DNA from: a virus
Taxonomy: Duplodnaviria > Heunggongvirae > Uroviricota > Caudoviricetes
Strand: one strand, 5' to 3'
Virus record (IMG/VR): IMGVR_UViG_3300017917_003521
Length of the DNA stretch: 64,000 nt
Part shown: positions 7,005 to 29,459 of the stretch, in pieces
Position numbering within the stretch: the first letter of the stretch is position 1
Layout: the number at the start of each line of letters is the position of its first letter
Position numbers and translations under genes: made by a program
The notes under the pieces: model-generated
Told to the model about the DNA's origin: nothing
What the model saw: the letters and a program-made list of their open reading frames with translations, nothing else
Databases searched by the model: none

Positions 7005-7076
7005 GGTCCTGTCGACTAATGGTTAGGTCAACACCCTTTCAAGGTGTAGATGCGGGTTCGATCCCCGTCAGGACTA
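7005..7076 (+). tRNA. tRNA-Glu (TTC)
   Basis: ACACC-CTTTCAA-GGTGT; canonical cloverleaf. Confidence 0.9.
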
Positions 7077-7084
7077 CAAAAAAT

Positions 7085-7164
7085 GCTACGGTATGCAAAC
7101 CGGAATAAGCGACCAGACTTTCAATCTGGACATCGAAAGATGTGTGCGGGTTCCGTCCGTAGTA
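7085..7164 (+). tRNA. Atypical tRNA, TTC (Glu) anticodon with long variable arm and truncated T arm
   Basis: CCAGA-CTTTCAA-TCTGG; V arm CATC-GAAA-GATG; T arm reduced to GCGG-GTT-CCGT. Confidence 0.6.
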
Positions 7165-7171
7165 CAAAAAT

Positions 7172-7254
7172 GGGAATGATGTGACACAGGTAGTCACGCT
7201 AGTCTGTAAAACTAGTGCCTTCGGGCGTTGCGAGTTCGAGTCTCGCCATTCCCA
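7172..7254 (+). tRNA. tRNA-Tyr (GTA)
   Basis: CTAGT-CTGTAAA-ACTAG; long V arm. Confidence 0.9.
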
Positions 7255-7261
7255 CAAACAA

Positions 7262-7345
7262 GGGAGAGCGCCAACGTTGGAGAGTTGGGCTGGTCTGTAA
7301 AATCAGTGGCTTACGCCTGAGTGGGTTCGATTCCCACCTCTCCCA
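7262..7345 (+). tRNA. tRNA-Tyr (GTA)
   Basis: CTGGT-CTGTAAA-ATCAG; long V arm. Confidence 0.9.
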
Positions 7346-7351
7346 CAAAAT

Positions 7352-7424
7352 GATGCCATCGACTAAGGGCTTAGGTCGCCATCCTCTCAAGGTGGAAATA
7401 CGGGTTCGAATCCCGTTGGCATTA
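7352..7424 (+). tRNA. tRNA-Glu (CTC)
   Basis: CCATC-CTCTCAA-GGTGG. Confidence 0.9.
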
Positions 7425-7486
7425 CAAAAAAACTTGAAAAAGTTTGGTAATTAAAATTAAATTACTATCTTTGTAGAGTTGAAAAT

Positions 7487-7558
7487 GGTCCGTTAGTGAA
7501 GCGGTTAACACGCTACCCTTTCACGGTAGAGGCACGGGTTCGAACCCCGTACGGACTA
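7487..7558 (+). tRNA. tRNA-Glu (TTC)
   Basis: CTACC-CTTTCAC-GGTAG. Confidence 0.9.
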
Positions 7559-7563
7559 CAAAT

Positions 7564-7678
7564 GACGCAAAAGGGTCAGGTGATGATATGATGGGTCTGC
7601 TCGAGATACTAGTTCAGCAGTTTAGTAAGACATCATATATGTAGCTTGGAGAGTTTGGTTCAATTCCGAACTGCGTCT
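7564..7678 (+). ncRNA. tRNA-like RNA with greatly extended central arm
   Basis: GACGCA/TGCGTC acceptor, GTTTGG-TTCAATT-CCGAAC T arm, long ATATGATG/CATCATAT helix in place of the anticodon arm. Confidence 0.55.
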
Positions 7679-7682
7679 CTAA

Positions 7683-7760
7683 AAAACAGATAACTCCGGT
7701 ATGGTCTCAATCATTACTCAGAACCGGACTTAGGAGAGTTACAAGTTGAGATTCTGTTTT
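7683..7760 (+). ncRNA. Unassigned structured RNA (possible pseudoknot)
   Basis: Nested AAAACAGA/TCTGTTTT, TAACTC/GAGTTA, CGGT/ACCG plus crossing TCTCAA/TTGAGA. Confidence 0.35.
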
Positions 7761-7766
7761 TTTTAT

Positions 7767-7849
7767 TGGTAGGTATGCAAGTGGTTAAAGCGATCGGTCT
7801 GTAAAACCGCCCTCTTCGGAGTTCGGGGGTTCAAATCCCTCCCTGCCAA
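7767..7849 (+). tRNA. tRNA-Tyr (GTA)
   Basis: TCGGT-CTGTAAA-ACCGC; long V arm. Confidence 0.85.
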
Positions 7850-7915
7850 CAAATAATAAAAAAAATTAAAAGGGAAGATAAAACTTTTTATATATACTTT
7901 AATATAATTAAAACG

Positions 7916-7996
7916 ATGAAAAATTTAACTAACATATCAACAGCAATAATCGAAGGCGGCGCGGGAGCGAATGTCACTGGCTGGTTTATGTTATAA
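7916..7996 (+). CDS. Leader peptide 2 MKNLTNISTAIIEGGAGANVTGWFML (putative Ile/Gly/Ala attenuator)
   Basis: 26-aa ORF after the promoter motif; ATA..GCA-ATA-ATC-GAA-GGC-GGC-GCG-GGA-GCG. Confidence 0.75.
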   Translation: MKNLTNISTAIIEGGAGANVTGWFML

Positions 7997-8020
7997 TCTT
8001 TCATCAAAAGAAGTAAACGG

Positions 8021-8053
8021 AACCCAGTCAGTGAAAATTGACTGGGTTTTTTT
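8021..8053 (+). terminator. Intrinsic terminator/attenuator before Ile/Gly/Ala tRNA array
   Basis: AACCCAGTCAGT-GAAA-ATTGACTGGGTT plus U-tract. Confidence 0.85.
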
Positions 8054-8057
8054 ATTT

Positions 8058-8138
8058 CGGCAGATACCGGTCCAATCTTATACATTGGATATCCGTAGTG
8101 GTAAGTTGAAAACGTGGGTTCGAATCCCACTCTGCCGA
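8058..8138 (+). tRNA. D-arm-less rearranged tRNA with TAT (Ile) anticodon loop
   Basis: CGGCAGA/TCTGCCG acceptor, CCAAT-CTTATAC-ATTGG right after a 7-nt connector, 25-nt variable region, canonical T arm. Confidence 0.6.
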
Positions 8139-8150
8139 CAAAAGATATAA

Positions 8151-8222
8151 GCGGGTATCGTATAAAGGCTATTACTCCAGCCTTCCAAGCTGGAGATGTC
8201 GGTTCGATTCCGACTACCCGCT
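8151..8222 (+). tRNA. tRNA-Gly (TCC)
   Basis: CCAGC-CTTCCAA-GCTGG, U73. Confidence 0.9.
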
Positions 8223-8266
8223 CAAATGAGAAAACATTAAAACCATCCCACCAGGATGTAAAACTC

Positions 8267-8340
8267 GGTCCTGTAGCTCAATTGGTCAGAGCAACTCGCT
8301 CATAACGAGAAGGTTGTCGGTTCAAGTCCGGCCAGGACCA
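8267..8340 (+). tRNA. tRNA CAT, probably Ile2 (lysidine/TilS substrate)
   Basis: ACTCG-CTCATAA-CGAGA; body resembles bacterial ileX-type tRNA; tilS nearby. Confidence 0.7.
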
Positions 8341-8345
8341 CAAAT

Positions 8346-8428
8346 GCGGGTGTCGTATAACGGTAGGTAATTCGACATTACACCTGGCTTCCAACCAGGA
8401 GACGAGGGTTCGACTCCCTTCACCCGCT
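8346..8428 (+). tRNA. tRNA-Gly (TCC) with enlarged D loop
   Basis: CCTGG-CTTCCAA-CCAGG; D loop TAACGGTAGGTAATTCGACAT. Confidence 0.85.
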
Positions 8429-8435
8429 CAACTAT

Positions 8436-8511
8436 GGGGATGCATGTACCAAGGCTTTGGCGAGTCTGCTTTGCAAGCAAACTGTGGTGGGTTCGATTCC
8501 CATCATCTCCA
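8436..8511 (+). tRNA. tRNA-Ala (TGC)
   Basis: TTTGCAA loop, G3-U70, A73. Confidence 0.8.
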
Positions 8512-8516
8512 CAAAA

Positions 8517-8689
8517 TGAGTATGACTATATTTAAATATTTAGTAGATGGTAAACTTTACTTCTTGTATAAAGGAGTTAAGGGTTATATTGCTATACCAT
8601 TTGAACATAGTGGTAGCACAATATCAAATCCCGACTTAAAAGAATTTGTACCAGTTGAATTTGGTAGTGGTTCTAATGGATTTGTATAA
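8517..8689 (+). CDS. Small hypothetical protein (MSMTIFKYL...)
   Basis: ATG just after tRNA-Ala; the track ORF start at 8444 lies inside the tRNA. Confidence 0.55.
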
Positions 8690-8822
8690 AAATAAAATTG
8701 AGTATGAAAAAGGTATTAACAGGCGAATTTGAATCAAGTAGAAAGAATTTAAGAAGAGATATAAATAAAAGTGTTTTGACTAAATTAATTAAAAGATTGA
8801 AAAGTAAGAGAAAATAAAATAA

Positions 8823-8897
8823 GCGAAAGTCGTATAGTGGCTATTATATCGCCTTGCCAAGGCGAGGACGGGAGTTCGATTCTCCTCTTTCGCTCCA
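8823..8897 (+). tRNA. tRNA-Gly (GCC), CCA encoded
   Basis: TCGCC-TTGCCAA-GGCGA; ends TCCA. Confidence 0.9.
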
Positions 8898-8938
8898 CCT
8901 GCCGGATGATCCACCGTTGTATCACGGTGCCGGCTCCA

Positions 8939-9012
8939 GGGGGATTAGCTCAGCTGGCTAGAGCGTCTGCCTTGCACGCAGAAGGTCAACGGTTCGACTC
9001 CGTTATCCTCCA
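8939..9012 (+). tRNA. tRNA-Ala (TGC)
   Basis: TCTGC-CTTGCAC-GCAGA, G3-U70. Confidence 0.92.
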
Positions 9013-9031
9013 CTAAAAAAATTAAATTGTT

Positions 9032-9525
9032 ATGAAAAATCAAAGAACTAACAGCTTGGACGCCTAACCAAGAATGAACGAATCGAATTAAGAAAAAAAG
9101 AAATAGGTTCAAAATTAGATAGAAAACTACAAAAGTATTCTAATAGTTTTAATGAAATATTTACTTTCTTTTTGAAATCTTATCGTTCGGGCATTCTTAC
9201 ATTCTGTGGTAGTTCAGTAGATATTGATTTTGATGTCTATGGTATAGAAGGAAAAATGACTTTTAGAAAATATGACAATGGTCAATATCAACAAGGTAAA
9301 CAAATTATAACAAGACATCCTAATATAGTAAAAGGAGTTATAACTGGTAAAAAAAGTTGGGGCTTGTGGGTTAATCAGTGGTCTGATGGTATAGTAGAAG
9401 GAACATTCTCAAAAAGAGAAATATTAGAACAATTTGAGAAATTAAATATTATAATACCAGAATCACTACTAAACGATTTTAATAATAGAATAATAAATAA
9501 AATGAAGAAAAAATATGGATGGTAA
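9032..9525 (+). CDS. Hypothetical protein, probably frameshifted near 9052-9067
   Basis: ATG at 9032 stops at 9067, but the -1 frame is open from 9052 to 9525. Confidence 0.45.
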
Positions 9526-9634
9526 TAAAACTTTCCATATATTTGTATAATAAATATCAACTATCATTTTTCTTTGACAAAAGGTGGTTAAAAAATTTCA
9601 AAGAAATTTGAATTAAAAAGAAAAATGTAATAGT

Positions 9635-10456
9635 ATGAAAACAAAAGACACCTTCGGGGATCGTATGAAAATGTACGAAAACCAAACCTGTGGAATTAGA
9701 TTAATTCCCAGAATTCCAGTAATTGCCCGTCTTGATGGTAAAGGATTCTCTAAATTTACTAAAGGTCTTAAAAGACCGTATGATGAAAGACTATCTAAAT
9801 TGATGATTGAAACTACTAAGTATTTAGTTAAAGAAACTAATGCAAACTGTGGCTATACTCAATCTGATGAAATCACTTTAATGTGGTACACTGATAAGAT
9901 CGATGCTTCAATTTATTTTGATGGTCGTTTATTTAAGATGCTTTCCGATCTTTCGGCTATGGCTTCTGTATTCTTTAATAGAAAACTTAGCGAATATCTT
10001 CCAGAAAAGGCTGATAAGATGCCTAGATTTGATGCTAGAGTTTACAACGTTCCAACTTTAGATGAGGCGATGAATTCATTCCTTTGGAGAGAACAAGATG
10101 CAACTAAGAACTCAATTACTATGGCGGCTTCTCATTATTACTCTCACAAAGAGTTACACGGAAAGAATGGAAATGAAAAACAAGAAATGCTTTTTCAAAA
10201 AGGTGTTAATTGGAATGATTACCCAACTTTCTTCAAGAGGGGTACTTATGTACAAAGAAAAAGAGTTTTAACTCCTTTCAGCGCTGAAGAGATTGAAAAA
10301 CTACCAATTAAACACAATGCTAGAAAAGATCCTAGTATGTTAATTGAAAGATGGGTTATTGATGTGGTTGAATTACCTAAACTATCAAGTATTGAAAATT
10401 CTGTTGAAGTTATTGTTTTTGGTGAAGAACCTAAATTAAAAAGTCCAGTTATTTAA
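9635..10456 (+). CDS. thg1: tRNA(His) guanylyltransferase / Thg1-like 3'-5' polymerase
   Basis: ARLDGKGFSKFTK, GYTQSDEI, FDARV, WREQDATKNSI motifs. Confidence 0.92.
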   Translation: MKTKDTFGDRMKMYENQTCGIRLIPRIPVIARLDGKGFSKFTKGLKRPYDERLSKLMIETTKYLVKETNANCGYTQSDEITLMWYTDKIDASIYFDGRLFKMLSDLSAMASVFFNRKLSEYLPEKADKMPRFDARVYNVPTLDEAMNSFLWREQDATKNSITMAASHYYSHKELHGKNGNEKQEMLFQKGVNWNDYPTFFKRGTYVQRKRVLTPFSAEEIEKLPIKHNARKDPSMLIERWVIDVVELPKLSSIENSVEVIVFGEEPKLKSPVI

Positions 10457-11084
10457 CTGGACTTTCTTCTTTATTAAATATTTTATCTAAGTACATATAG
10501 ATATATTTTCTATACCTATTAACTGTTTTTTCATCACAGTATTTTTTAATATCAAACCAAAGATGACCAGCTTGTCCACCAATACCTCTTTGTAGTCTCT
10601 CCATACCTTCTTCTTTACTTCTAACAACTCTAGATAATTCATTTGCTATAGTGAAAGAAAAAGCCATTACTTCTTCTTTATTAGAGAAATACTCTTTTCT
10701 ATTCAATGGACTTGGTAGTTTGTAATCAATTTGACCTTTTCTTAAACTTTGTTCAGCATGAACTCTTTCATGTCCAATTATGTCTAACATAATATCTTTA
10801 AAATTAGGAATAAATCTAGCAGCATTTTCATCTACTAAAACAAACATAGGCTTTTTTGTAGAAGGATTAAAAAGAGCAAAGAAAGGAACACCGTGTCTCG
10901 GAGGTGCTGTTTTTTTATTTTCTTCACTTAGTGAGTTATAAAACTCATCATAACCAACAACATCGAATCCATTTCTTTCTCCGAATTCTTTAGCGGATTG
11001 AAAAGAGTTAACTGGTGTGTTATCTTCTATTTTTGTAGGCATAATAACTGCCTCGAATAATTCAAATTTTACTAGATGTTTCAT
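10449..11084 (-). CDS. Hypothetical protein with possible HExxH-like site and MKHLVKFE N-terminus
   Basis: GHERVHAEQ ... EEVMAF; TAATATATA motif upstream. Confidence 0.5.
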   Translation of the reverse strand: MKHLVKFELFEAVIMPTKIEDNTPVNSFQSAKEFGERNGFDVVGYDEFYNSLSEENKKTAPPRHGVPFFALFNPSTKKPMFVLVDENAARFIPNFKDIMLDIIGHERVHAEQSLRKGQIDYKLPSPLNRKEYFSNKEEVMAFSFTIANELSRVVRSKEEGMERLQRGIGGQAGHLWFDIKKYCDEKTVNRYRKYIYMYLDKIFNKEESPVK

Positions 11085-11146
11085 AATGTATATATTAATT
11101 GGACTTTTTAATTATTTGTTATATAATTAAAAAAGTGAATTTAAAA

Positions 11147-11731
11147 ATGAAAGTATTAAATATAATAGGACATCCTAATAAAAAGAGCTTTAACTATGCT
11201 ATACATAATAGAGTAAAGGATTTTTGTAAGAAAAATAAAATAGAATATAAGTATATCGATTTATACTTAGATAGATTTGATCCTGTTTTACATGAAAAAG
11301 AATCACCTAATAATCAAAACTTGATAAAAGAATATCAAGAAAAAATAAAATGGGCAGATGCTATAATAATTACATCACCTGTTTGGTGGTTTAGATTAAC
11401 TACTGTTTTAGAAGGATTCTTTGATAAAGTCTTGTCACCTGGTTTTGCTTATAATTTCAAATCACTTACAAAGTTGTATGGTTATCCTCAACCTTTATTA
11501 AGTGATAAAAAAGTTATAACATTTTTAACACATGGTGCTCCTGGTTTGCCAGTAAAAACAATATATGTAAACTCAGTTAAACTTAGATTATTACTTGGTG
11601 TTTATTCATTTTGTTTTGGTTGGTTCAAACAAAAGATATATCAATTTTGGAGTGTGCCTTTTGTAACAGATGATAAAAGAAAATCTTACTTAGAAAAAGT
11701 AGATAAAATTTTAAAGAAAAGATTATTATAA
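11147..11731 (+). CDS. NAD(P)H-dependent oxidoreductase, flavodoxin-like fold (KefF/MdaB family)
   Basis: GHPNKKSFN, WADAIIITSPVWW, LEGFFDKV. Confidence 0.85.
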   Translation: MKVLNIIGHPNKKSFNYAIHNRVKDFCKKNKIEYKYIDLYLDRFDPVLHEKESPNNQNLIKEYQEKIKWADAIIITSPVWWFRLTTVLEGFFDKVLSPGFAYNFKSLTKLYGYPQPLLSDKKVITFLTHGAPGLPVKTIYVNSVKLRLLLGVYSFCFGWFKQKIYQFWSVPFVTDDKRKSYLEKVDKILKKRLL

Positions 11732-11737
11732 TTATAT

Positions 11738-12376
11738 TTGCTTAAAATAGTAAATATGATTAAAGTATTAGGTGAGATTCCAAAGTCAGAATTTGGCATT
11801 GCTTGTTCAGGTGGTGTTGATTCTATGGCTATTCTTGACTTCTTAGTTAAGGGTAAATATAATCCACATGTTCTTTACTTTAATCACAACACCGAACACG
11901 GTCACGAAGCTGAAAAGTTTATCACAGACTACTGCAATCAAAAAAGTCTTAAATTGACTATTGGTAGGACTGATTTAAAACCTGAGACTAATAAAGAAAA
12001 AATCTGGTCTGATTTAAGGTATAATTTTTTTTCAAAGTTTGATTTTCCTATTATTACTTGTCACCATTTAGACGATTGTGTAGAAACTTATTTGTTTTCT
12101 TGTTTAAGGGGATTTCAATCAGTTATTCCTTATTCAAAAGGAAATGTTATTAGACCATTTTTATTAAATGAGAAATCTGAATTTGAAAAGTGGTGTAAAC
12201 AAAAATCTGTACCTTTTATTCAAGACTATTCAAATGATTGTCTAGATTATTCAAGAAATAGAATTAGACATAAAATTGTACCAGAATCTTTACTTGTAAA
12301 TCCAGGACTTAAAACTGTGGTTAGAAAAATGATTAAAATTCAAATTTATAATCAAGTTCAAAATTATTCTTATTAA
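11738..12376 (+). CDS. tilS: tRNA(Ile)-lysidine synthetase, catalytic PP-loop domain only
   Basis: ACSGGVDS, FNH, LRY, HHLDDCVET, IRPFL, YSRNRIRH. Confidence 0.88.
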   Translation: MLKIVNMIKVLGEIPKSEFGIACSGGVDSMAILDFLVKGKYNPHVLYFNHNTEHGHEAEKFITDYCNQKSLKLTIGRTDLKPETNKEKIWSDLRYNFFSKFDFPIITCHHLDDCVETYLFSCLRGFQSVIPYSKGNVIRPFLLNEKSEFEKWCKQKSVPFIQDYSNDCLDYSRNRIRHKIVPESLLVNPGLKTVVRKMIKIQIYNQVQNYSY

Positions 12377-12722
12377 TATGAAATTCTAATCCTTTTATAA
12401 ATTCTGGTCTAACAATTAAAGTACCATCTTGTTGAAGTTTAAGATATTTATCAATGAATATTTCAGGTTCATAGATTTTCATAGATAAATCTCTTTTTAG
12501 ATTATTATAAGGTATTTGTCTATCGGGATGTAAATTATAAATTATTGATTTGTTAAAATTGGCTATATCTAAAACAACTTCTTTTTTTATAGAATCACTT
12601 TGAATTGTCTGAGCATCAGCACTATTTAAACCAAGTGAAAGCATAGCAGATAAAATAAGATTTCTTAAAATTCCTTTTTCTTCATTTAAAACAAAATCGT
12701 TATATTCTTTTATGTACTTCAT
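12333..12722 (-). CDS. Hypothetical protein with MKYIKEY..F N-terminus
   Basis: ORF with TAATATATA motif upstream. Confidence 0.55.
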   Translation of the reverse strand: MKYIKEYNDFVLNEEKGILRNLILSAMLSLGLNSADAQTIQSDSIKKEVVLDIANFNKSIIYNLHPDRQIPYNNLKRDLSMKIYEPEIFIDKYLKLQQDGTLIVRPEFIKGLEFHINKNNFELDYKFEF

Positions 12723-12755
12723 TAAACTATATATTAATTTTTTTATAAAACATTT

Positions 12756-13412
12756 ATGGATTTATTTCACTTTGATATAGAAACTTGTGGTCAGTATAAA
12801 GACTACGATTCTTTTTTAGACTCTGACGAGAGAGGCGCTAGACTTTTTCAATCTAAGTATGAAAAAATGAACTGGTCTGAAAAATATGTCGATATAAACG
12901 AAGCTTATATTGAAAATGCCGGTATAATCTCGACATATGGTAAAATATGTTGTATATCTTTTGGTTATGAATCAAATGGTGAAAAGCATATTAGATCTTT
13001 CTATGGTGATGATGAAAGAGACATAGTTGAATCATTTAACAACTTACTAAAGAAAATAGAATCAAAAAATTTTAGTCTATCAGGATTTAGAATTAATCAC
13101 TTTGATATTCCTTGGGTTCTACATAAACTCCATAAGTATGACATTGAACCAGCTAATATGATTTATCTATATGATAAAAAGCCTTGGGATATGAGAATTG
13201 TAGATATGTCTGATGATTGGAAACAAAAATTTGCTTGGTCATTCTCATTTGACGAAATGTGCTACGAGCTAGGAGTTAAATCACCTAAAGACATAATCAA
13301 TGGTTCTGATGTTCATAAATACTACTGGTCAGGTAGAATAGAAGATATTAAAACTTATTGTGAAAAAGACGTTAGTTCATCAATTGATGCCTCTAAAAAG
13401 TTGTATAAATAA
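12756..13412 (+). CDS. Stand-alone PolB-type 3'-5' exonuclease
   Basis: FDIET, GFRINHFDIPW, YCEKDV (DEDDy). Confidence 0.8.
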   Translation: MDLFHFDIETCGQYKDYDSFLDSDERGARLFQSKYEKMNWSEKYVDINEAYIENAGIISTYGKICCISFGYESNGEKHIRSFYGDDERDIVESFNNLLKKIESKNFSLSGFRINHFDIPWVLHKLHKYDIEPANMIYLYDKKPWDMRIVDMSDDWKQKFAWSFSFDEMCYELGVKSPKDIINGSDVHKYYWSGRIEDIKTYCEKDVSSSIDASKKLYK

Positions 13413-13451
13413 TATTTTTTATTTATCTTTGTGTTTTAAAATAAATCACTA

Positions 13452-13595
13452 TGGGTAAAGTAAAAGAAATTTGTATTGAAATTCAAGAGAAATTTGGAGA
13501 AGAGGTTGAAATCACAGAAGAAGTTTTCAAACAACACCTAATTGAAAAAGGAATTTATAAAGAAACAAAAAACTCAAAAGAGGAAGAAGAGTAAA
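13452..13595 (+). CDS. Small acidic protein MGKVKEICIEIQEKF...
   Basis: About 47-aa ORF between a TAnnTTTG promoter and terminator AAACCATCT-AATTT-AGATGGTTT; end coordinate approximate. Confidence 0.55.
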
Positions 13596-13673
13596 ACCAT
13601 CTAATTTAGATGGTTTTTTTTGTTTATGTAGCCTGTATATACAAATATATACTTGTAAAATATAGTATATAAA

Positions 13674-13859
13674 ATGGCAGCACCAAAAGACAAAATGTTC
13701 TCACTACGAATTCCAGAAAAGCTACTTAATGAGTATAGAGAGTTTTGTGAAGAAAACTCTATTAATATTTCTATGAGATTAAGAAAGTTTATAGAGAGAG
13801 ATTTAGAATCTTGGAGACTAAAAAAGATTCAACAGAGAAAAAATAATTCTCAATCTTAA
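13674..13859 (+). CDS. Ribbon-helix-helix DNA-binding protein
   Basis: MFSLRIPEKLLNEYREFC...ISMRLRKFIE. Confidence 0.7.
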   Translation: MAAPKDKMFSLRIPEKLLNEYREFCEENSINISMRLRKFIERDLESWRLKKIQQRKNNSQS

Positions 13860-13892
13860 TATATACCATTATAATAAAAATAACATTTTAAT

Positions 13893-15290
13893 ATGAAATA
13901 CCTAAAGAGATATGAGAGTTTTATTGATGATGCTTTCAAAAATGTAAATATGAATATAGATAAAGGTTTGTCTATTGTTGAAAAACAAGTTTTAAATGAC
14001 TTCTCTACTAACTTCTGGGAGTTATCATTAAACTCTTCTGTTTTTACAAATGAAGAAAAATTATTTATTAAAGAAAATTTACTAACAACTAAAGTTGATT
14101 TAGTTAATGAAGGTTGGTTAGGCGATACTTTAGGTGCTGTTTGGGATAAAGCTAAAGAAGTTGGTGGTAAAGTTTGGGATAAAGTAAAGTCTAAAATTAC
14201 TATCATTAAAGATAATATTAAAAATTTAGTATCTGGTATTGGTGATTTCTTAAAAAGTATGTTTAAGTCTTTAGGTAATTCAATTATTACTAAGTCAAAT
14301 ACATTAAAAGATAAAGTAAAAACTGAGTTCCCAACTAAAGTTAAAGCTATAATGGATAAAAATAAACCTGATCCTAAAGAATTGAAAACTGAAATTGATC
14401 AATTAAAAGTAACATATACTCACTTAAAAGATTCTATTACTGCTGGTTTATTAGCATCATCAATTAGTAGCTCAGATGATGTTGTTATAAAAGATGCTGA
14501 AGGTCAAATTGGAGAATTAGAAGCAGAATTAAAAGCCGAATCTCAAAATCATGACATTCTTAAAGCTTTCTACATTACTGAAGCTGAAGAAGCTGAAGTA
14601 GAATACAAAGTAGGTGATAAAGTAATCTATAAATCTAAAGAGGGTAAAGAAATCGAAAAAGAGATTATCAAAATAGAAGGTGATAACTTCTTCTTCAAAG
14701 ATAAAGAAGGCAATGAGTTTTCAAAAACTAAATCTGATATAGTAGGAAAAGCTAAAGGAACTGGTGCTAAAATATGGGCTGGTTTCTCTAAATGGTTCTT
14801 AGATATGGAACAAGCAACACCACCTGAGAAAGGTAAAGCTGTTTGGTGGATTAAATTAATTCTTAAAATAGTAGGATTAATCTTATCACCAGTTGTTAAA
14901 GGTTTAGAGGTTGCTGCTAAGTTAATAGCTTCTAATGTTCTTAAAGGCGCTTCTGCTGCTTCTAAGTGGTTAAAAGGACCTGGTGTTTTTGAATTCTTAA
15001 TTTTAGGTGGAATTGTGGCTGGTTTGCCAGCTTTAGTTACAGAAGTAAGTTTACTCTCACATGTAGTACCTGAGCCTTACTCAAAAATATTTGAAGTTGT
15101 TGCTGAATTTTTAACAGAGATAACAGGCATTGAAGGTTTACTTCTTATACTTGGTTCTTTCTGTACAGCAATGACTTTATATCAATTAATTATTGAGTTC
15201 ACACATTTATTTGGTGGTCACGGACACGGTGAAGAAGGACATTCTCCTAAACCAGGTGAAGAAGGTGCAACACCAGCACCAGCGGCTTAA
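13893..15290 (+). CDS. Large hypothetical protein (MKYLKRYESF), SH3/KOW-like insert, hydrophobic C-terminal helices
   Basis: YKVGDKVIYK...KIEGDNFFFKD; hydrophobic C-terminus. Confidence 0.6.
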   Translation: MKYLKRYESFIDDAFKNVNMNIDKGLSIVEKQVLNDFSTNFWELSLNSSVFTNEEKLFIKENLLTTKVDLVNEGWLGDTLGAVWDKAKEVGGKVWDKVKSKITIIKDNIKNLVSGIGDFLKSMFKSLGNSIITKSNTLKDKVKTEFPTKVKAIMDKNKPDPKELKTEIDQLKVTYTHLKDSITAGLLASSISSSDDVVIKDAEGQIGELEAELKAESQNHDILKAFYITEAEEAEVEYKVGDKVIYKSKEGKEIEKEIIKIEGDNFFFKDKEGNEFSKTKSDIVGKAKGTGAKIWAGFSKWFLDMEQATPPEKGKAVWWIKLILKIVGLILSPVVKGLEVAAKLIASNVLKGASAASKWLKGPGVFEFLILGGIVAGLPALVTEVSLLSHVVPEPYSKIFEVVAEFLTEITGIEGLLLILGSFCTAMTLYQLIIEFTHLFGGHGHGEEGHSPKPGEEGATPAPAA

Positions 15291-15306
15291 AATATTTTAG
15301 AAAGTA

Positions 15307-15338
15307 TTTGGTGAATTAAAAAACACACCGTATATTTG
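15307..15338 (+). promoter_or_regulatory. Bacteroidota-type promoter (TTTG-N20-TATATTTG)
   Basis: Consensus match. Confidence 0.65.
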
Positions 15339-15484
15339 TAAAACAATTGAGAGAGGCAACGATTTAGATACAAATTTCAATTTTTTTTACAAATTTTAGA
15401 AAAAAATTAGGCAAACTTAAAACTTTTATCTATATTTGTATAAAATAAGTCAAAAGGAACAAAAACTTTTTAATATATACAACA

Positions 15485-15595
15485 ATGAAAACAATGAATT
15501 TAAATATGAATCTTAATCTAACAGTGGTGAATACGTTATGTATTAGACCAGTGGAGGGTTTTGCCATATCTAAAAATTTGTTTTCAGTCAACTAA
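15485..15595 (+). CDS. Leader peptide 3 MKTMNLNMNLNLTVVNTLCIRPVEGFAISKNLFSVN (putative multi-amino-acid attenuator)
   Basis: 36-aa ORF between promoter cassette and terminator. Confidence 0.75.
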   Translation: MKTMNLNMNLNLTVVNTLCIRPVEGFAISKNLFSVN

Positions 15596-15623
15596 TGTAA
15601 GACAAATAAACTAAAGATAAGTG

Positions 15624-15655
15624 AAACCCTCAGACAAAAATCTGAGGGTTTTTTT
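15624..15655 (+). terminator. Intrinsic terminator/attenuator before the large tRNA array
   Basis: AAACCCTCAGA-CAAAAA-TCTGAGGGTTT plus U-tract. Confidence 0.85.
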
Positions 15656-15723
15656 ATGCCTGTCCTCCTGAACATTTGGTGTTGGTTCGGGAGGACATGA
15701 AAAAGGAAAACACCATACCACAT

Positions 15724-15795
15724 TCCTCGGTAGCTCAGTGGTAGAGCAAACGGCTGTTAACCGTTAGGTCGCTGGTTCGAGCCCAGCCCGGGGAG
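15724..15795 (+). tRNA. tRNA-Asn (GTT)
   Basis: AACGG-CTGTTAA-CCGTT, G73. Confidence 0.92.
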
Positions 15796-15803
15796 CAAAA
15801 CAT

Positions 15804-15888
15804 TGGTAGGTACCCGAGCGGTATTCAGGGACTAGTCTGATACACTAGGTGAGAAATCACGACATGGGTTCAAATCCCATCCTACCAA
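15804..15888 (+). tRNA. tRNA GAT (Ile) with long variable arm
   Basis: CTAGT-CTGATAC-ACTAG; V arm GTGA-GAAA-TCAC; Tyr-like body. Confidence 0.75.
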
Positions 15889-15894
15889 CAACAT

Positions 15895-15966
15895 TCACTG
15901 GTAGCTCAGAGGCAGAGCAGGCGCCTGTTAAGCGTCAGGTCGGGATATCGTAATTCCCCCAGTGAG
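15895..15966 (+). tRNA. tRNA-Asn (GTT), T loop ATCGTAA
   Basis: GGCGC-CTGTTAA-GCGTC. Confidence 0.75.
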
Positions 15967-15972
15967 CAAAAC

Positions 15973-16051
15973 GCCTCAGTAGCCGAGGTCGCCTTCTAAG
16001 CGACTAATCGTAACGGAACTGAAAATGTAGGTTCGAATCCTACCTGGGGTA
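15973..16051 (+). tRNA. D-arm-less rearranged tRNA with TCT (Arg) anticodon
   Basis: GCCTCAG/CTGGGGT acceptor, 8-nt connector, GTCGC-CTTCTAA-GCGAC, 22-nt variable region, canonical T arm. Confidence 0.65.
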
Positions 16052-16057
16052 CAAAAT

Positions 16058-16130
16058 GGTCTCCTCGTCCAACTGGATAGGACATCGGTCTTCTAAACCG
16101 AGAATATGGGTTCGAATCCCGTGGAGACTA
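16058..16130 (+). tRNA. tRNA-Arg (TCT)
   Basis: TCGGT-CTTCTAA-ACCGA. Confidence 0.9.
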
Positions 16131-16138
16131 CAAAAAAT

Positions 16139-16221
16139 GCCGAAGTGGTGGAATGGTAGACACGCTAGCCTTAGGAGCTAGTACCCGAAAGGGTGTGTGG
16201 GTTCGAGTCCCACCTTCGGTA
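16139..16221 (+). tRNA. tRNA-Leu (TAG)
   Basis: CTAGC-CTTAGGA-GCTAG; long V arm. Confidence 0.92.
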
Positions 16222-16227
16222 CAAAAT

Positions 16228-16315
16228 TGGCAGGTAGCCTAGTGGTTCAGGCACCAGACTGTTAATCTGAGAGAAGAAATTCTCAACGTGGGTTCGAATC
16301 CCACCCTGTCAGCCA
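16228..16315 (+). tRNA. tRNA GTT (Asn) with long variable arm, CCA encoded
   Basis: CCAGA-CTGTTAA-TCTGA; V arm GAGAA-GAAA-TTCTC; G73. Confidence 0.75.
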
Positions 16316-16318
16316 AAT

Positions 16319-16391
16319 AGTCCTGTAGCTCAATCGGGGGAGCGCCACTGTTACATAGTGGAGGGAGTCGGATCGTAACCGACCGGGACTA
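16319..16391 (+). tRNA. tRNA-Val (TAC), T loop ATCGTAA
   Basis: CCACT-GTTACAT-AGTGG. Confidence 0.78.
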
Positions 16392-16397
16392 CTAAAA

Positions 16398-16495
16398 TGC
16401 TTTATGCACAATCTTACGATCTCTCAGTTAAAAGCTGTCGTAGGTTTAAGTGATAAAACAATATGTTTATCAGTTGTGAAAAACATAAAGCACCA
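16398..16495 (+). ncRNA. Three-way-junction RNA ending in CCA
   Basis: TGCTTTATG/CATAAAGCA plus CACAA/TTGTG closing two hairpins; 3' end GCA-CCA. Confidence 0.55.
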
Positions 16496-16496
16496 T

Positions 16497-16570
16497 TGGA
16501 ACATAGCTCAATTGGTTAGAGCATTCGCCTGATACGCGAAAGGTTATGAGTTCGAGTCTCATTGTTCCAA
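16497..16570 (+). tRNA. tRNA-Ile (GAT)
   Basis: TTCGC-CTGATAC-GCGAA. Confidence 0.92.
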
Positions 16571-16578
16571 CAACAAAT

Positions 16579-16661
16579 GGTACTGTGGCCGAGTGGTGTC
16601 GAAAGACGAGAGGCACAGATCTGCAAAATCTGTCACACTGGTTCGAATCCAGTCAGTACCT
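16579..16661 (+). tRNA. tRNA-Cys (GCA) with hairpin inserted in the D loop
   Basis: CAGAT-CTGCAAA-ATCTG; GTC-GAAA-GAC in D loop; U73. Confidence 0.85.
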
Positions 16662-16667
16662 CAACAT

Positions 16668-16739
16668 TGTTCTGTAGCTTAATGGGAAAGCGCTACCTTG
16701 ACATGGTAGAGAGAGTCGGATCGTTACCGACCAGAACAA
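16668..16739 (+). tRNA. tRNA-Val (GAC), T loop ATCGTTA
   Basis: CTACC-TTGACAT-GGTAG. Confidence 0.8.
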
Positions 16740-16745
16740 CTACAA

Positions 16746-16821
16746 GCCTCTATAGCTTTAACGGTAGAGCACCGCACTTGTAATGCGGGGGTTGGCGGTT
16801 CGAATCCGTCTGGAGGCTCCA
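16746..16821 (+). tRNA. tRNA-Thr (TGT), CCA encoded
   Basis: CCGCA-CTTGTAA-TGCGG. Confidence 0.92.
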
Positions 16822-16843
16822 AATAATGGATGGTGATTAAGAG

Positions 16844-16917
16844 TGTTACTTCGTGAAATTGGTATACACATTTGTCCTAAAAACAAACTTTTGAGGGTTC
16901 AAGTCCCTCAGTAAAAT
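16844..16917 (+). tRNA. Leu-like tRNA (TAA, C33) lacking the V arm, embedded in a long outer helix
   Basis: Leu-type D arm GTG-AAATTGGTATA-CAC; TTTGT-CCTAAAA-ACAAA; weak acceptor. Confidence 0.5.
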
Positions 16918-16944
16918 CACTCTTTAGACTTTCCTCCATTATAT

Positions 16945-17028
16945 GCCGATGTGGCTCAGTGGCGACAGCACTGGTTTTGTAAACCAGAGACGAATAGTCC
17001 AACGGGGGTTCGAGTCCCTCCATCGGCT
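16945..17028 (+). tRNA. tRNA TGT (Thr) with long variable arm
   Basis: CTGGT-TTTGTAA-ACCAG; V arm GAC-GAATA-GTC; U73. Confidence 0.75.
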
Positions 17029-17043
17029 CAAAATAAATCACCT

Positions 17044-17160: not shown

Positions 17161-17231
17161 ATTGGGATAGTTTAACGGTAAATCGTGGGCCTGATATGCC
17201 CTTGTTCTTGGTTCGACTCCAGGTCTCAATA
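17161..17231 (+). tRNA. tRNA-Ile (GAT)
   Basis: GGGC-CTGATAT-GCCC. Confidence 0.75.
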
Positions 17232-17237
17232 CTAAAC

Positions 17238-18693: not shown

Positions 18694-20157
18694 ATGAAAA
18701 ATATAGTAACAAGAATTGCACCTTCTCCAACTGGACCGTTTGCACATATTGGTAATGTGAGAACTCTATTGTATAACTACTTTCTTGCTAAAAAGAATGG
18801 TGGTAAATTCTATGTTCGTTTGGAAGATACCGATCGTGATAGATATAATGCCTCGTTTTTAACATACTTTAAAGATATGTGTGATTGGCTTGGTATAGTA
18901 CCTGATGGTTCTTATTGGAACCCTGATCCATCTATTGGCTCATTCACTCAATCAACAAGAGATTATTCAGATAAGGTTAAATTCCTTTTAGATAAAGGTT
19001 TGGCTTACTATGCCTTTGATACTAAGGATGATTTAGACGCACTAAAGGCTAAAGGTCTAAAGTATGACTCAACAACTCGCATGTCTATGAATAACTCATT
19101 GACTAATCCATCCACTGATATTATGTTACAAAGTGGTGTTCCTTATGTAATTAGATTTGCTGTTCCAGCTGACTTAGATGTAACTTTCACTGATGCTATT
19201 TTAGGTGATATCACAATCAACACAAATACTTTAGATGATAAAGTTTTAATTAAGTCAAATGGAATTGGCTCATATCATCTTTGTAATGTTTGTGACGATC
19301 ATGATATGGGTGTTACTCACGTTCTTAGAGGTAACGAGTGGGTAAACTCTACTCCTTTCCACGTTATTCTTTATAAGGCTTTTGGTTGGGATGTTCCTAC
19401 ATTTGCTCACTTACCTTTAATTATGAATCCAGATGGTAAAGGTAAGTTGTCTAAGAGAACTGCTATGAAGTATGGTATTCCTATCGCACCACTTGGTTAC
19501 ACAGATGATAATGGTGTTTATACACCAGGTTGGAAAGACTTAGGATATGATCCTAAAGCATTTATGAACTATCTTGCTTTAATTGGTTGGAATCCAGGAG
19601 CTGAAGTAGAAATTATGTCTATGGATGATATGATTAATTTATTCTCTTTAGATAGAGTTCACAAGTCTGGTGCTCGTTTCGATATGGATAAAGCTAAGTG
19701 GATGAACTCTCAATATCTTAAATTAACAGATAACAAAGACTTGATGCCTTATGTTGATGTAGTTGACGATAGATATTCTGATGATAAATTAGACATGATT
19801 GTCTCTTTGGCTAAAGATAGATCTGACTTTAAAACTGACTTGAATAAAATTGTTAAATTATTCTTTGATGTCCCTTCTATCGATGATAGAAGTAAATTAG
19901 ATGATAACTATACAAAAGTTATGTCAGACTTTATCAACAAAATTGATACAATTAACTTTGATGATACAAACTCAATCAAAGACACTATCTCATCAATCTG
20001 TAATGATTTAGGTGTTAAGATGGGTAAAGTAATGCCTGGTTTAAGAATGGCTTTGGTATCCGGGATTGCTGGACCAGACTTAATGACAACAATGTCAATT
20101 CTAGGTAAAGACCAAACAAAATTGAGAATTAATAACTCAATTACGGTAATGGCTTAA
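18694..20157 (+). CDS. gltX: Glutamyl-tRNA synthetase
   Basis: RIAPSPTG, HIGN, RLEDTD, VLRGNEW, KLSKR, anticodon-binding tail. Confidence 0.95.
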   Translation: MKNIVTRIAPSPTGPFAHIGNVRTLLYNYFLAKKNGGKFYVRLEDTDRDRYNASFLTYFKDMCDWLGIVPDGSYWNPDPSIGSFTQSTRDYSDKVKFLLDKGLAYYAFDTKDDLDALKAKGLKYDSTTRMSMNNSLTNPSTDIMLQSGVPYVIRFAVPADLDVTFTDAILGDITINTNTLDDKVLIKSNGIGSYHLCNVCDDHDMGVTHVLRGNEWVNSTPFHVILYKAFGWDVPTFAHLPLIMNPDGKGKLSKRTAMKYGIPIAPLGYTDDNGVYTPGWKDLGYDPKAFMNYLALIGWNPGAEVEIMSMDDMINLFSLDRVHKSGARFDMDKAKWMNSQYLKLTDNKDLMPYVDVVDDRYSDDKLDMIVSLAKDRSDFKTDLNKIVKLFFDVPSIDDRSKLDDNYTKVMSDFINKIDTINFDDTNSIKDTISSICNDLGVKMGKVMPGLRMALVSGIAGPDLMTTMSILGKDQTKLRINNSITVMA

Positions 20158-26273: not shown

Positions 26274-26347
26274 CGGGAAGTGACTAAGGTTTTAAGCACG
26301 GGTGTTCTGGAGACATCAGTTAGTCGGTTCGATTCCGACCTTCCCGA
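26274..26347 (+). tRNA. Atypical tRNA-Pro (TGG; C33, A37)
   Basis: C1-G72, A73; GGTGT-TCTGGAG-ACATC. Confidence 0.6.
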
Positions 26348-27854: not shown

Positions 27855-29459
27855 ATGAATTTCATTGAAGAAAAAATATTAGATAAAGGTAATCTTGATA
27901 AATTAACTTTAAGATTCCCACCAGAGCCAAATGGTTATTTACATATTGGTCACGCTAAATCCATTATCTTAAATTTTGGATTGGCTGAAAAATATAATAG
28001 ACCTTGTAACTTGAGATTTGATGATACAAATCCAACTACTGAAGATACACATTTTGTTGAATCTATAATAAAAGATATAGAATGGTTAGGCTACAAGCCT
28101 GCTAATATTTTCTATACATCTGATTACTTTGAATTTATTTACAAATGTGCTGTTACTTTAATTAAGAAAGGTCTAGCTTATGTTGATGATTCAACATCTG
28201 AAGAAATTGCTAACTTAAAAGGAACACCCACAGTTGCTGGTAAAGATTCACCATACAAGTCAAGAACTATTGAAGAAAACTTAGATCTATTTAATAGAAT
28301 GAGATTAGGTGAATTTGTTGAAGGTTCTAAAATTCTTAGAGCTAACATTGATATGGCTTCTCCTAATATGATTTTAAGAGATCCTGTTATTTATAGAATA
28401 ATATCTAAGTCACATCATAGAACTGGTGATACTTGGAAGATTTATCCAATGTATGATTTTGCTCATCCTTTAAGTGATTATAACGAAGGTATTACTGATT
28501 CTTTATGTACTTTAGAATTTGAAGTTCATAGACCTTTATATATGTGGGTCTTAGAAAATTGTGATTTAGAAAATCCTTTACCAGAAGAAACTGAGTTTGC
28601 TCGTTTGAACATTGACTATACAGTTATGTCAAAGAGAAAGTTAAAGAGATTAGTTGAAGAATCTTATGTTGATGGTTGGGATGATCCAAGAATGCCTACT
28701 ATCTCTGGATTAAGAAGAAGAGGTTATACACCAAGTGCTATTAAAGATTTTTGTGATAGAATTTCTGTTACTAGAAAAGATGGTGTTGTTTCTTATTCTT
28801 TACTTGAAGAATGTCTAAGAACCGAATTGAATAAGACTGCTCCAAGATTAATGGGTGTCATGGATCCTGTTAAGTTAGTTGTTACTAATTTTGAAGGTGA
28901 AGGATATTGTGAAATTGACAATAATCCAGAAGATGAAAATGCTGGTAAAAGAAAAGTTTCTTATTGTAATGAATTTTGGATTGAAAAAGAAGATTTCAGA
29001 GAAGAAGCCAATAACAAATATCACAGATTAAAGTTAGGTGGTGAAGTTAGATTAAAAGGATTGTTTATAGTTAAAGCCAATGAAATAATTAAAGATGAAA
29101 ACGGTGAAATTATAGAAATCAGATGTACTTATGACCACGATGCTTGGATTGGTGTTACTGAAAAGAGGGTTAAAGGTACTATTCACTGGGTTTCTGTTAA
29201 CCACGGAGTTAAGATGAAAGTAAACGATTATGATAGATTATTTATCAATAGTTCACCAGACAAAGGAGATGAAGATTTTACAACTCATGTCAATCCTAAC
29301 TCATTAGTTATTAATGATAATGCTATCTTTGAGGAAAATGTAAAAGATTGTAAAGTAGGTGTGCCTGTTCAAATGATGAGAAAAGGTTACTATGTTTTAG
29401 ATAAAGATGGTAAGTCTTGGAACAGAACTGTAAGTTTGAAAGAAGGATGGGTAGGTTAA
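27855..29459 (+). CDS. glnS: Glutaminyl-tRNA synthetase
   Basis: RFPPEPNGYLHIGHAKS, RFDDTNP, IYPMYDFAH, CTLEF, MSKRKL, KGTIHWVS. Confidence 0.96.
   Translation: MNFIEEKILDKGNLDKLTLRFPPEPNGYLHIGHAKSIILNFGLAEKYNRPCNLRFDDTNPTTEDTHFVESIIKDIEWLGYKPANIFYTSDYFEFIYKCAVTLIKKGLAYVDDSTSEEIANLKGTPTVAGKDSPYKSRTIEENLDLFNRMRLGEFVEGSKILRANIDMASPNMILRDPVIYRIISKSHHRTGDTWKIYPMYDFAHPLSDYNEGITDSLCTLEFEVHRPLYMWVLENCDLENPLPEETEFARLNIDYTVMSKRKLKRLVEESYVDGWDDPRMPTISGLRRRGYTPSAIKDFCDRISVTRKDGVVSYSLLEECLRTELNKTAPRLMGVMDPVKLVVTNFEGEGYCEIDNNPEDENAGKRKVSYCNEFWIEKEDFREEANNKYHRLKLGGEVRLKGLFIVKANEIIKDENGEIIEIRCTYDHDAWIGVTEKRVKGTIHWVSVNHGVKMKVNDYDRLFINSSPDKGDEDFTTHVNPNSLVINDNAIFEENVKDCKVGVPVQMMRKGYYVLDKDGKSWNRTVSLKEGWVG

Follow-up and report, generated by a model that had tools for sequence, protein, structure and literature searches.

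Long variable arms (the class-II shape) are a textbook property of four bacterial tRNA isotypes, Leu, Ser, Tyr and selenocysteine (Sec). We analysed a 64,000-nucleotide (nt) stretch of viral DNA, IMG/VR record IMGVR_UViG_3300017917_003521 (the window), in which the 37 tRNA genes called by ARAGORN fall into three same-strand arrays; Rfam reports several tRNA-like matches in addition. Three of these genes combine a long variable (V) arm with the anticodon of another isotype: a tRNA-Ile(GAU) at 15804-15889 (86 nt), a tRNA-Asn(GUU) at 16228-16315 (88 nt) and a tRNA-Thr(UGU) at 16945-17029 (85 nt), all on the plus strand. Each is called by ARAGORN, and they score 51.4, 57.8 and 60.5 bits, respectively, against Rfam RF00005, whose gathering cut-off is 29 bits.

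Long-arm tRNA genes in the window

ARAGORN draws the three genes as cloverleaves with a 7-base-pair (bp) acceptor stem and a 5-bp T stem (7/5), carrying a stem-loop in the variable region. Scoring above the gathering cut-off and having a 7/5 cloverleaf, a 7-nt anticodon loop and a T loop, they show the features of elongator tRNAs. Their V regions of 15 (Ile), 17 (Asn) and 16 nt (Thr) have class-II shape, being longer than 10 nt and forming a stem-loop; their anticodons fall outside the class-II isotypes, as does the UUC of a fourth lineage described below. The Ile gene has a 4-bp V stem with a GAAA loop, followed by 3 unpaired nt before the T stem; in the Asn gene the stem has 5 bp, again with GAAA and 3 following nt, and in the Thr gene 3 bp with a GAATA loop and 4 unpaired nt. 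Unconstrained folding returns the five-arm shape for the Ile and Asn genes and a near version of it for the Thr gene. At the acceptor end, the Ile gene carries U1-A72 and A73 (with a Tyr-like D arm), the Asn gene U1-A72, G73 and an encoded CCA (16313-16315), and the Thr gene G1-C72, C2-G71 and U73.

Spacers of only 3 to 8 bases separate the three genes from adjacent tRNAs, hence they belong to polycistronic arrays, and they would most likely be transcribed together with the other genes of this compact array. Ordinary short-arm twins on the same strand accompany them: tRNA-Asn(GUU) at 15724..15796 (U1-A72, G73) and again at 15895-15967, tRNA-Ile(GAU) at 16497..16571 (A73, anticodon loop identical to that of 15804) and again at 17161-17232, and tRNA-Thr(UGU) at 16746..16821 (G1-C72, C2-G71, U73). 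The discriminators of the long-arm genes equal those of the local short-arm Asn, Thr and Ile genes, as the initial annotation had noted for Asn and Thr.

That annotation had listed four tRNAs with stem-loop V arms, including one at 7085. Three are borne out by ARAGORN and Rfam. The fourth is a remnant long-arm tRNA-Glu(UUC) at 7085..7164 (plus strand), in which the acceptor, D and anticodon arms and the V hairpin are intact and the T loop and stem are 6 bases short. It has a TTC anticodon loop and a 5-bp, GAAA-capped V hairpin, and it folds without a T arm (segment folded: 7086-7166, which starts one base late). It is missed by ARAGORN, and Rfam gives no tRNA match at E<=1 with 22.5 kb searched or at E<=10 with 281 nt searched. 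Compared with three orthologues (L019:13627, L023:994 and L030:662) it shows the 6-base gap in the T loop and stem and is otherwise identical to two of them. Intact 87-nt Glu orthologues are called by ARAGORN in two relatives, and an intact orthologue scores 47.1 bits with Rfam. Because of this gap, and because neither program calls it, we regard 7085 as a damaged copy or an assembly error; it is probably dead in this genome, and would be the matching Glu(UUC) gene after loss of 6 bases of the T loop. The possibility raised at the outset that the long-arm genes are pseudogenes thus fits 7085 and not the three genes called by both programs. Short-arm tRNA-Glu(UUC) twins lie at 7005..7077 (plus strand, A73) and at 7487-7559.

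Conservation and origin of the extra arm

Relatives were sampled at loci around homologues of the glutamyl-tRNA synthetase (GluRS) gene and in the tRNA arrays of four large relatives, giving 257 distinct ARAGORN tRNAs (the clade). Long-arm Ile, Asn and Thr genes stand at matching array positions in LR745206.1 and LR756502.1, uncultured phage genomes of 634,780 and 642,428 bases that are the closest named records to the window, and in IMG/VR relatives. The Ile gene has orthologues at L005:3953, L017:214, L020:782 and in L171; the Asn gene has five in the clade, all with G73; and the Thr gene is identical in L017, L018 and L020.

Base pairing is retained while the sequence changes. Across 5 Ile orthologues and 23 pairs, 100% of the cells are standard pairs, and 6 of the 23 pairs have changed on both sides, including 3 of the 4 pairs of the V stem. 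Likewise, compensatory changes occur in 18 of 20 predicted pairs in an alignment of 68 long-arm Asn sequences and in 16 of 20 in an alignment of 25 long-arm Thr sequences. In both alignments the acceptor-end identity marks are the most conserved positions outside the loops. RNAalifold drew no V stem on the MAFFT alignments of the Asn and Thr families, since arm length varies, and hairpin potential was therefore measured separately. Folding energy averages -2.62 kcal/mol over the V regions of 36 clade genes and -0.35 +/- 0.13 over their shuffles, and 89% of these regions form a V stem of at least 3 bp, compared with 55% of shuffles; the V regions of 62 IMG/VR genes show similar gaps to their shuffles. 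Most V loops are GAAA, GCAA or GTAA, so that the hairpin frequently ends in a GNRA tetraloop, with GAAA and GCAA capping 18 of the 36. Judged by these patterns of substitution and folding, the three genes are under selection as tRNAs and the hairpin of the extra arm is also maintained.

To trace where the long-arm genes come from, we compared tRNA bodies, excluding the variable region and the anticodon. Pairs of different isotype have a mean identity of 0.50, with the 99th percentile at 0.667 and the 99.9th at 0.727. The nearest non-orthologues of the long-arm Ile gene are long-arm Asn (0.72), the tRNA-Tyr(GUA) at 7767..7850 on the plus strand (0.70) and short-arm Ile (0.63). Those of the Asn gene are two Tyr genes (0.76 and 0.73, the latter being 7767), long-arm Ile (0.75), long-arm Lys (0.71) and short-arm Asn (0.71), and those of the Thr gene are long-arm Leu (0.72) and short-arm Thr (0.69). 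Tyr 7767 is the local class-II body nearest to the Ile and Asn genes. The Tyr-like body that had been assigned to 15804 therefore lies above the 99th percentile; the same assignment is less apt for 7085, whose intact orthologue has an identity of 0.69 with long-arm Leu and 0.67 with short-arm Glu, above the 0.61 with Tyr. As the nearest bodies mix class-II and cognate genes, the long-arm genes look like hybrids of a class-II body with a cognate acceptor and anticodon stem. They would probably have arisen from class-II genes of the array, of Tyr type for Ile and Asn, by a change of anticodon and discriminator.

The V arm itself appears to have a partly separate history. The Thr arm has 15 of 16 bases in common with the arms of Asn genes of relatives (L023:8502, L020:2012), while stem identity is only 0.54-0.59, and in a single array of genome G003 an Asn and a Thr gene have 13 V-arm bases in common. 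This suggests that a V cassette has been exchanged between genes, apparently between neighbours, or that one particular hairpin has been selected.

Identity marks and charging

In E. coli, the identity pairs of tRNA-Thr are G1-C72 and C2-G71. According to the passages on these isotypes in a review of tRNA identity (PMC9976931), Thr identity lies in acceptor-stem pairs and the Thr anticodon; Asn identity in the anticodon and G73, a set that can be transplanted into tRNA-Lys; Lys identity in the anticodon and A73, so that A73 versus G73 switches between Lys and Asn; and Ile identity strongly in GAU and A73, with minor determinants in the stems and D loop. The same source gives A73 and U35 as critical for Tyr, with G1-C72 in bacteria; a long arm in the Ser orientation, G1-C72/G2-C71 and G73 for bacterial Ser; and A73 plus core contacts for Leu, in which the arm is dispensable.

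The Asn gene carries the full Asn set, GUU and G73, with U1-A72 as in both of its short-arm twins. The Thr gene has G1-C72, C2-G71 and UGU, together with the U73 of its twin at 16746. The Ile gene has GAU, A73 and the anticodon loop of its twin at 16497, A73 being common to Tyr and Leu. A73 and U35, the Tyr-critical pair, never occur together in the three genes: Ile has A35 and U1-A72, Asn has G73 and U1-A72, and Thr has G35 and U73. The Ser set is likewise absent, G73 being found only in the Asn gene, which has U1-A72. Moreover, 3-4 unpaired nt follow the V stem of the long-arm genes, compared with 3 in the local Tyr genes, 2 in Leu and 1 in Ser (5 of 7 Ser genes). On the rules of the review, U73 means that the Thr gene is not Leu, Tyr or Ser, and the Asn gene lacks the A73 of Tyr and the G1-C72 of Ser.

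Relatives follow the same pattern. Position 73 of clade long-arm genes is G in Asn (6/6), U in Thr (5/5), A in Ile (4/4) and A in Lys (11/11); in short-arm genes of the same genomes it is G in Asn (7/10), U in Thr (15/15) and A in Ile (13/13), and in class-II genes A in Tyr (11/11) and Leu (24/24). Among the matches listed from other viral contigs in IMG/VR, 59 of 64 long-arm Asn genes have G73, and the long-arm Thr genes have U73 in 18 and G1-C72 in all of 22. In the Thr alignment the pairs 1-72 and 2-71 (G1-C72/C2-G71) are invariant in 25 of 25 sequences and pairs 3-7 vary. Long-arm Lys(CUU) and Asn(GUU) genes of relatives are near-copies in D arm, anticodon stem and V arm, and are distinguished by A73 versus G73.

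We also asked which synthetases are encoded with these genes. A relative rated as 95% complete (G001) carries long-arm Asn, Thr, Lys and Glu genes and has no match to PF00152, PF00587 or PF00133 (the AsnRS/LysRS, ThrRS and IleRS families), so that host enzymes must suffice if these tRNAs are charged at all. In LR745206.1 an AsnRS gene directly follows the array that holds the long-arm Asn gene, and an IleRS is encoded too. A tie between long arms and phage synthetases was considered and rejected as a general rule: LR745206.1 has an IleRS and no long-arm Ile gene, and G001 has long arms without the three families. Because the acceptor-end marks follow the anticodon, and in view of the long-arm genes of G001, we consider it likely that the tRNAs are charged with the amino acid of their anticodon by host IleRS, AsnRS and ThrRS, or by phage copies where present. 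The initial annotation had left correct charging and mis-incorporation side by side; the discriminator and first acceptor pairs, which track the anticodon and not the body, point to the former, with the A73 of Ile as the weakest case.

Known tRNAs of similar outline help to place the genes. Bacterial class-II tRNA-Tyr shares the 7/5 cloverleaf, the short V stem followed by about 3 unpaired nt and, with the Ile gene, the D arm; in contrast, its anticodon is GUA, and G73 (Asn) or U73 (Thr) replaces its A73. The allo-tRNAs (Mukai et al. 2017, PMC5389517; review PMC7609411), with which a comparison had been proposed, are bacterial and likewise join a long V arm to non-Ser, non-Leu anticodons. However, the accounts consulted describe an 8/4 or 9/3 split of a 12-bp acceptor branch and a Ser or Ala identity that inserts Ser or Ala whatever the anticodon (PMC7609411), whereas all three phage genes have 7-bp acceptor and 5-bp T stems. 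Nematode nev-tRNAs (Hamashima et al. 2012, PMC3333845) are also class II, carry anticodons of short-arm isotypes (Gly, Ile) and are conserved within lineages. As that paper presents them, they are eukaryotic, derived from tRNA-Leu with Leu identity, charged with Leu only, weakly expressed and tending to rare codons, while the phage genes bear identity marks of their own anticodons and match heavily used codons. The nev-type Leu identity, A73 with a Leu-type core, is not seen in the Asn gene (G73) or the Thr gene (U73); the Ile gene has A73, together with a D arm of Tyr type. In the account of PMC6614811, type I tRNA-Leu of Streptomyces coelicolor shows that the class of the variable region can be uncoupled from identity, one synthetase charging both types. 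It matches the short-arm Leu genes of the phage clade; it represents loss of the arm in Leu, as opposed to gain in phage Asn, Ile and Thr.

Spread and possible purpose of the long arm

Other isotypes in the relatives also have long arms, namely Lys UUU/CUU (11 genes), Glu UUC (3), Gln UUG (3), Met CAU (3, one initiator-like) and a poor Arg UCU. Lys is long-armed in 11 of 14 sampled genes, Asn in 6 of 16, Thr UGU in 5 of 14 and Ile GAU in 4 of 13, followed by Glu UUC (3/13), Gln UUG (3/14) and Met (3/15). No long arm occurs among the sampled genes for Asp (17), Val (15), Gly (12), Phe (7), Pro (7), Thr GGU (6) and His (5). Codon demand fails to explain this pattern: per thousand codons of the window's open reading frames (ORFs), AAA (68.1) ranks first and AAT reaches 60.7, but Asp has no long arm though GAT (63.5) is the second most used codon.

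Beyond the clade, a pattern placing a GUU anticodon loop 20-30 bases before a T loop matches at least about 120 stretches in IMG/VR. Among the matches listed, 64 of 80 loci read hold an ARAGORN tRNA-Asn(gtt) of at least 79 nt, 62 of them distinct; in prokaryote genomes the same pattern found such genes at only 10 of 80 loci read, again among the matches listed. Thr and Ile patterns gave the sought tRNA at 22 and 10 of 80 loci among the matches listed, many Ile matches lying inside coding sequence. Two cultured T4-like Aeromonas phages, 44RR2.8t (AY375531.1, 69900-69985) and Aeh1 (AY266303.2, 111227-111311), carry a long-arm Asn gene that is annotated as plain tRNA-Asn and whose arm and G73 ARAGORN confirms. 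It is the sole tRNA-Asn in the stretches read and in the table of the genome paper (PMC1524935), where, in the part consulted, it appears as 'Asn GUU' with no remark on shape. 44RR2.8t also has an 85-nt tRNA-Phe(GAA) with a 5-bp, GAAA-capped V arm, annotated as plain tRNA-Phe (L530 1715-1799; about 70066-70149 of AY375531.1). Klebsiella phage vB_KpnS-VAC51 has no long-arm gene other than Leu, Ser or Tyr within the 13.4 kb read. In a literature search whose coverage largely excluded subscription journals and supplements, we found no paper on phage long-arm Asn, Ile, Thr or Lys tRNAs, and the word 'phage' does not occur in a review of non-canonical tRNAs. Thus the prior suggestion that this might be a catalogued class holds to the extent that Asn relatives are in GenBank as plain tRNA-Asn, and no paper was found that treats them as a class. 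The design is widespread in phages and seems not to have been discussed in print.

From the structure, conservation, covariation, identity marks and spread described above, we infer charging, use in translation and a purpose for the arm. The reading we prefer, with a probability of roughly 0.55, is that the three genes are functional phage tRNAs of hybrid build, cognately charged decoders whose arm is selected, with evasion of defences as the leading candidate for its role. An ordinary 7/5 cloverleaf would have been combined with a short, stable V hairpin set against the T stem in Tyr fashion and with Ile, Asn or Thr marks, and the products would decode AUY, AAY and ACA alongside their short-arm twins. 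The arm, kept by selection, would alter recognition by tRNA-binding proteins other than synthetases, chiefly tRNA-cutting defence nucleases, and the phage could then go on translating codons for which the host tRNAs have been destroyed. AriB of the PARIS system cleaves tRNA-Lys UUU, Thr UGU and Asn GUU of E. coli, and T5 versions of these tRNAs rescue infection, as reported in the consulted part of a preprint (10.1101/2025.02.04.636281); Lys, Thr and Asn are the isotypes most often long-armed in the clade. Two defence nucleases, Septu (PMC13096335) and VapC52 (PMC13273310), are also reported to cut variable loops. A wider proposal is more tentative, and we would sooner bet against it: that the arm is a general counter-defence design, in which a small hairpin, often with a GNRA cap, grafted into the V region (or, in tRNA-Cys, the D loop) makes private tRNAs that synthetases and ribosomes accept and that nucleases cannot bind or cleave, the cassette being passed within arrays.

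Several observations weigh against the preferred reading or its defensive part. Since class IIb synthetases reach the tRNA at its variable-loop side, and since the lack of nucleotide 47 is a feature that E. coli GluRS relies on, AsnRS, LysRS or GluRS might be impeded by a long arm. The hairpin is not strictly required, as two Thr orthologues (L002:12729 and L023:9271, 81 nt) have lost the V stem, kept their length and carry an unstructured 12-nt V loop instead. The identity marks leave some room: the A35 of the Ile gene excludes Tyr, but its A73, used also by Leu and Tyr, leaves Leu open, and the G73 of the Asn gene is ambiguous by itself, since G73 with a long arm is also part of Ser identity (PMC9976931, in the passages cited above). 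The long-arm Asn gene at 16228 retains the UAAUC stretch tied to AriB cleavage, which its short-arm twins do not have, and long-arm Ile, Glu, Gln and Met lie outside the reported AriB targets. The counter-defence tRNAs of T5 (Burman et al. 2024, PMC11464382, as far as consulted) resemble the long-arm genes as phage Lys UUU, Thr UGU and Asn GUU supplied beside the host's. However, their escape is ascribed to substitutions at positions 39-41 (Belukhina et al., 10.1101/2025.02.04.636281), variable arms go unmentioned in the part of that preprint covered here (0 matches), and at 75-78 nt the annotated T5 genes for Thr, Asn and Lys have the size of short-arm tRNAs, so that T5 lends no direct experimental support.

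Four other explanations have to be weighed against this reading. The arm could be a tolerated and useless relic on cognate decoders, left over from Tyr- or Leu-type genes recruited by anticodon shift. The bodies fit such an origin, Ile and Asn being nearest the local Tyr lineage (0.70-0.76) and Thr and Glu nearest long-arm Leu (0.69-0.72); so do arrays full of duplicates and odd variants, the presence of a short-arm twin for every long-arm gene in the window, and the two Thr genes retained after loss of the V stem. Yet a relic should not be kept by compensatory change in 3 of 4 V-stem pairs, as in the Ile family, or fold far better than shuffles in both the 36 clade and the 62 IMG/VR genes. 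Nor does it sit well with a design found again and again in unrelated viral contigs (at 64 of the 80 loci read for the Asn pattern, among the matches listed), with a strongly uneven isotype distribution, or with phages 44RR2.8t and Aeh1, whose long-arm gene is the only tRNA-Asn in the stretches and table consulted. We consider this neutral origin unlikely, though less so than the explanations that follow. The very small chance that the genes are functionless pseudogenes or assembly artefacts draws on 7085, which is missing part of its T arm, and on several low-scoring tRNA-like sequences in the arrays; the other three genes are set apart by high Rfam scores, by conservation and compensatory changes across distant relatives, and by the repetition of the design in independent assemblies and cultured phages.

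Mischarging is clearly less favoured than cognate charging and, in our judgement, improbable. Here the class-II body would draw TyrRS, LeuRS or SerRS and place Tyr, Leu or Ser at Asn, Ile and Thr codons. The anticodon plays no part in recognition by LeuRS or SerRS, and for Leu identity A73 and the core are nearly enough (PMC9976931, in part); the nev-tRNAs, whose anticodons are those of Gly or Ile, accept Leu alone (PMC3333845, in part), and bacterial allo-tRNAs behave likewise with Ser. The A73 of the Ile gene, and the G73 with a long arm of the Asn gene, would suit such enzymes. Against it, position 73 follows the anticodon and not the body: the Thr gene has U73, while Leu and Tyr need A73 and Ser G73. 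At position 35, where U is critical for Tyr, the Ile gene has A and the Thr gene G; the Asn gene begins with the pair U1-A72, whereas bacterial tRNA-Ser keeps G1-C72 according to the same identity review; and the 3-4 unpaired nt after the V stem are as in local Tyr (3), unlike Ser (1) and Leu (2). Mischarging would also garble every protein, as Lys is mostly long-armed (11/14) and AAA is the most used codon. About equally improbable is a role outside translation, with the tRNAs acting as decoys that soak up nucleases, or as aminoacyl donors to or partners of a phage enzyme. The AriB-linked UAAUC in the long-arm Asn gene, and not in its short-arm twins, would suit a decoy; one V cassette spans isotypes whose stems are only 0.54 identical, as if read by one partner, and the Mom system of phage Mu modifies DNA using Gly-tRNA, as the consulted part of PMC13219725 reports. 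However, a decoy needs no conserved acceptor-end marks, yet these are the most conserved non-loop positions, no candidate partner gene adjoins the three genes in the window, and the long-arm gene of the Aeromonas phages is the only phage tRNA-Asn seen there.

Should charging of the long-arm tRNAs be cognate, a large extra arm would be tolerated by AsnRS, LysRS, ThrRS, IleRS and others. That would bear on how identity and shape are read, and tagged or orthogonal tRNAs could be built on these genes as natural scaffolds. An arm that blocks tRNA-cutting defences would be a structural escape route distinct from the point substitutions of T5 and would help to explain the near-complete tRNA sets of large phages. 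Annotation pipelines label the long-arm genes as ordinary tRNAs or miss the odder ones, and the cultured Aeromonas phages offer a ready test system.

Genomic context and other unusual tRNAs

The window has a G+C content of about 28%, and its proteins include phage families; it belongs to the genome of a huge phage that has at least 37 tRNAs and encodes a GluRS and a GlnRS of its own. The GluRS gene (18694..20157, plus strand; Pfam tRNA-synt_1c and Anticodon_2; NCBIfam gltX_bact 397.6 bits versus a cut-off of 289.95) adjoins the 3' side of the second tRNA array, and the GlnRS gene (27855-29459) lies directly 3' of three tRNA-Gln genes. With a protein bearing a TilS N-terminal domain and a Thg1-like guanylyltransferase (11738-12376 and 9635-10456 are listed for the two), they form a translation module flanking the arrays. 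Three further genes (30586-30999, 36331-36816, 58531-59859) encode domains with a flavour of RNA repair: a cyclic-phosphate processing receiver domain, an AAA_33 kinase-like protein, and a 2H phosphoesterase/2'-5' RNA ligase-like domain fused to an exonuclease, which also gives a weak Acb1 match. Such domains would fit a phage exposed to RNA-cutting defences.

Cut-down synthetase-like ORFs occur in relatives. A 210-aa (amino-acid) N-terminal fragment of HisRS lies 0.3-5 kb from long-arm Lys arrays (G003:220433-221065, L160; W02:378826-379458, L162; W01:345425-346060, L163), and a LeuRS-like protein of 432 aa (G003:258694-259992, L167; the LeuRS model has 843 positions) lies directly 3' of the main array.

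The arrays hold other tRNAs of unusual shape. The tRNA-Cys(GCA) at 16579-16661 (plus strand), missed by ARAGORN and scoring 57.4 bits with Rfam, has a small GAAA-capped hairpin inside its D loop, a second site of mini-hairpin addition to tRNA in these phages; in L002, L017, L020 and L023 the insert is conserved, its stem unchanged and its loop differing (GAAA, GTAA, TTTAA). A tRNA-Arg(UCU)-like gene at 15973-16051 (plus strand, 36.7 bits with Rfam), absent from the initial list, has a reduced D arm and a 22-nt variable region and sits directly 5' of its ordinary twin at 16058. The reverse case, a Leu anticodon with a short variable loop, is found at 16844-16918 (plus strand) in a 75-nt, AT-rich UAA gene with U73 and C at position 33. 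In relatives, short-loop Leu tRNAs occur at L001:13178, 13445 and 14029, L002:12814 and 12897, and L005:4839, 4926 and 5166; one such family has 74-76 nt, A73 and the anticodons UAG, UAA and CAA. Further tRNA-like sequences, missed by ARAGORN and with low or partial Rfam matches, lie at 8345-8425, 8436-8514, 8058-8138, 26274-26347 and 7565-7682; one resembles tRNA-Gly(UCC) but for its enlarged D loop, and another resembles tRNA-Ala(UGC). These sequences could be degenerate copies or additional non-canonical tRNAs.

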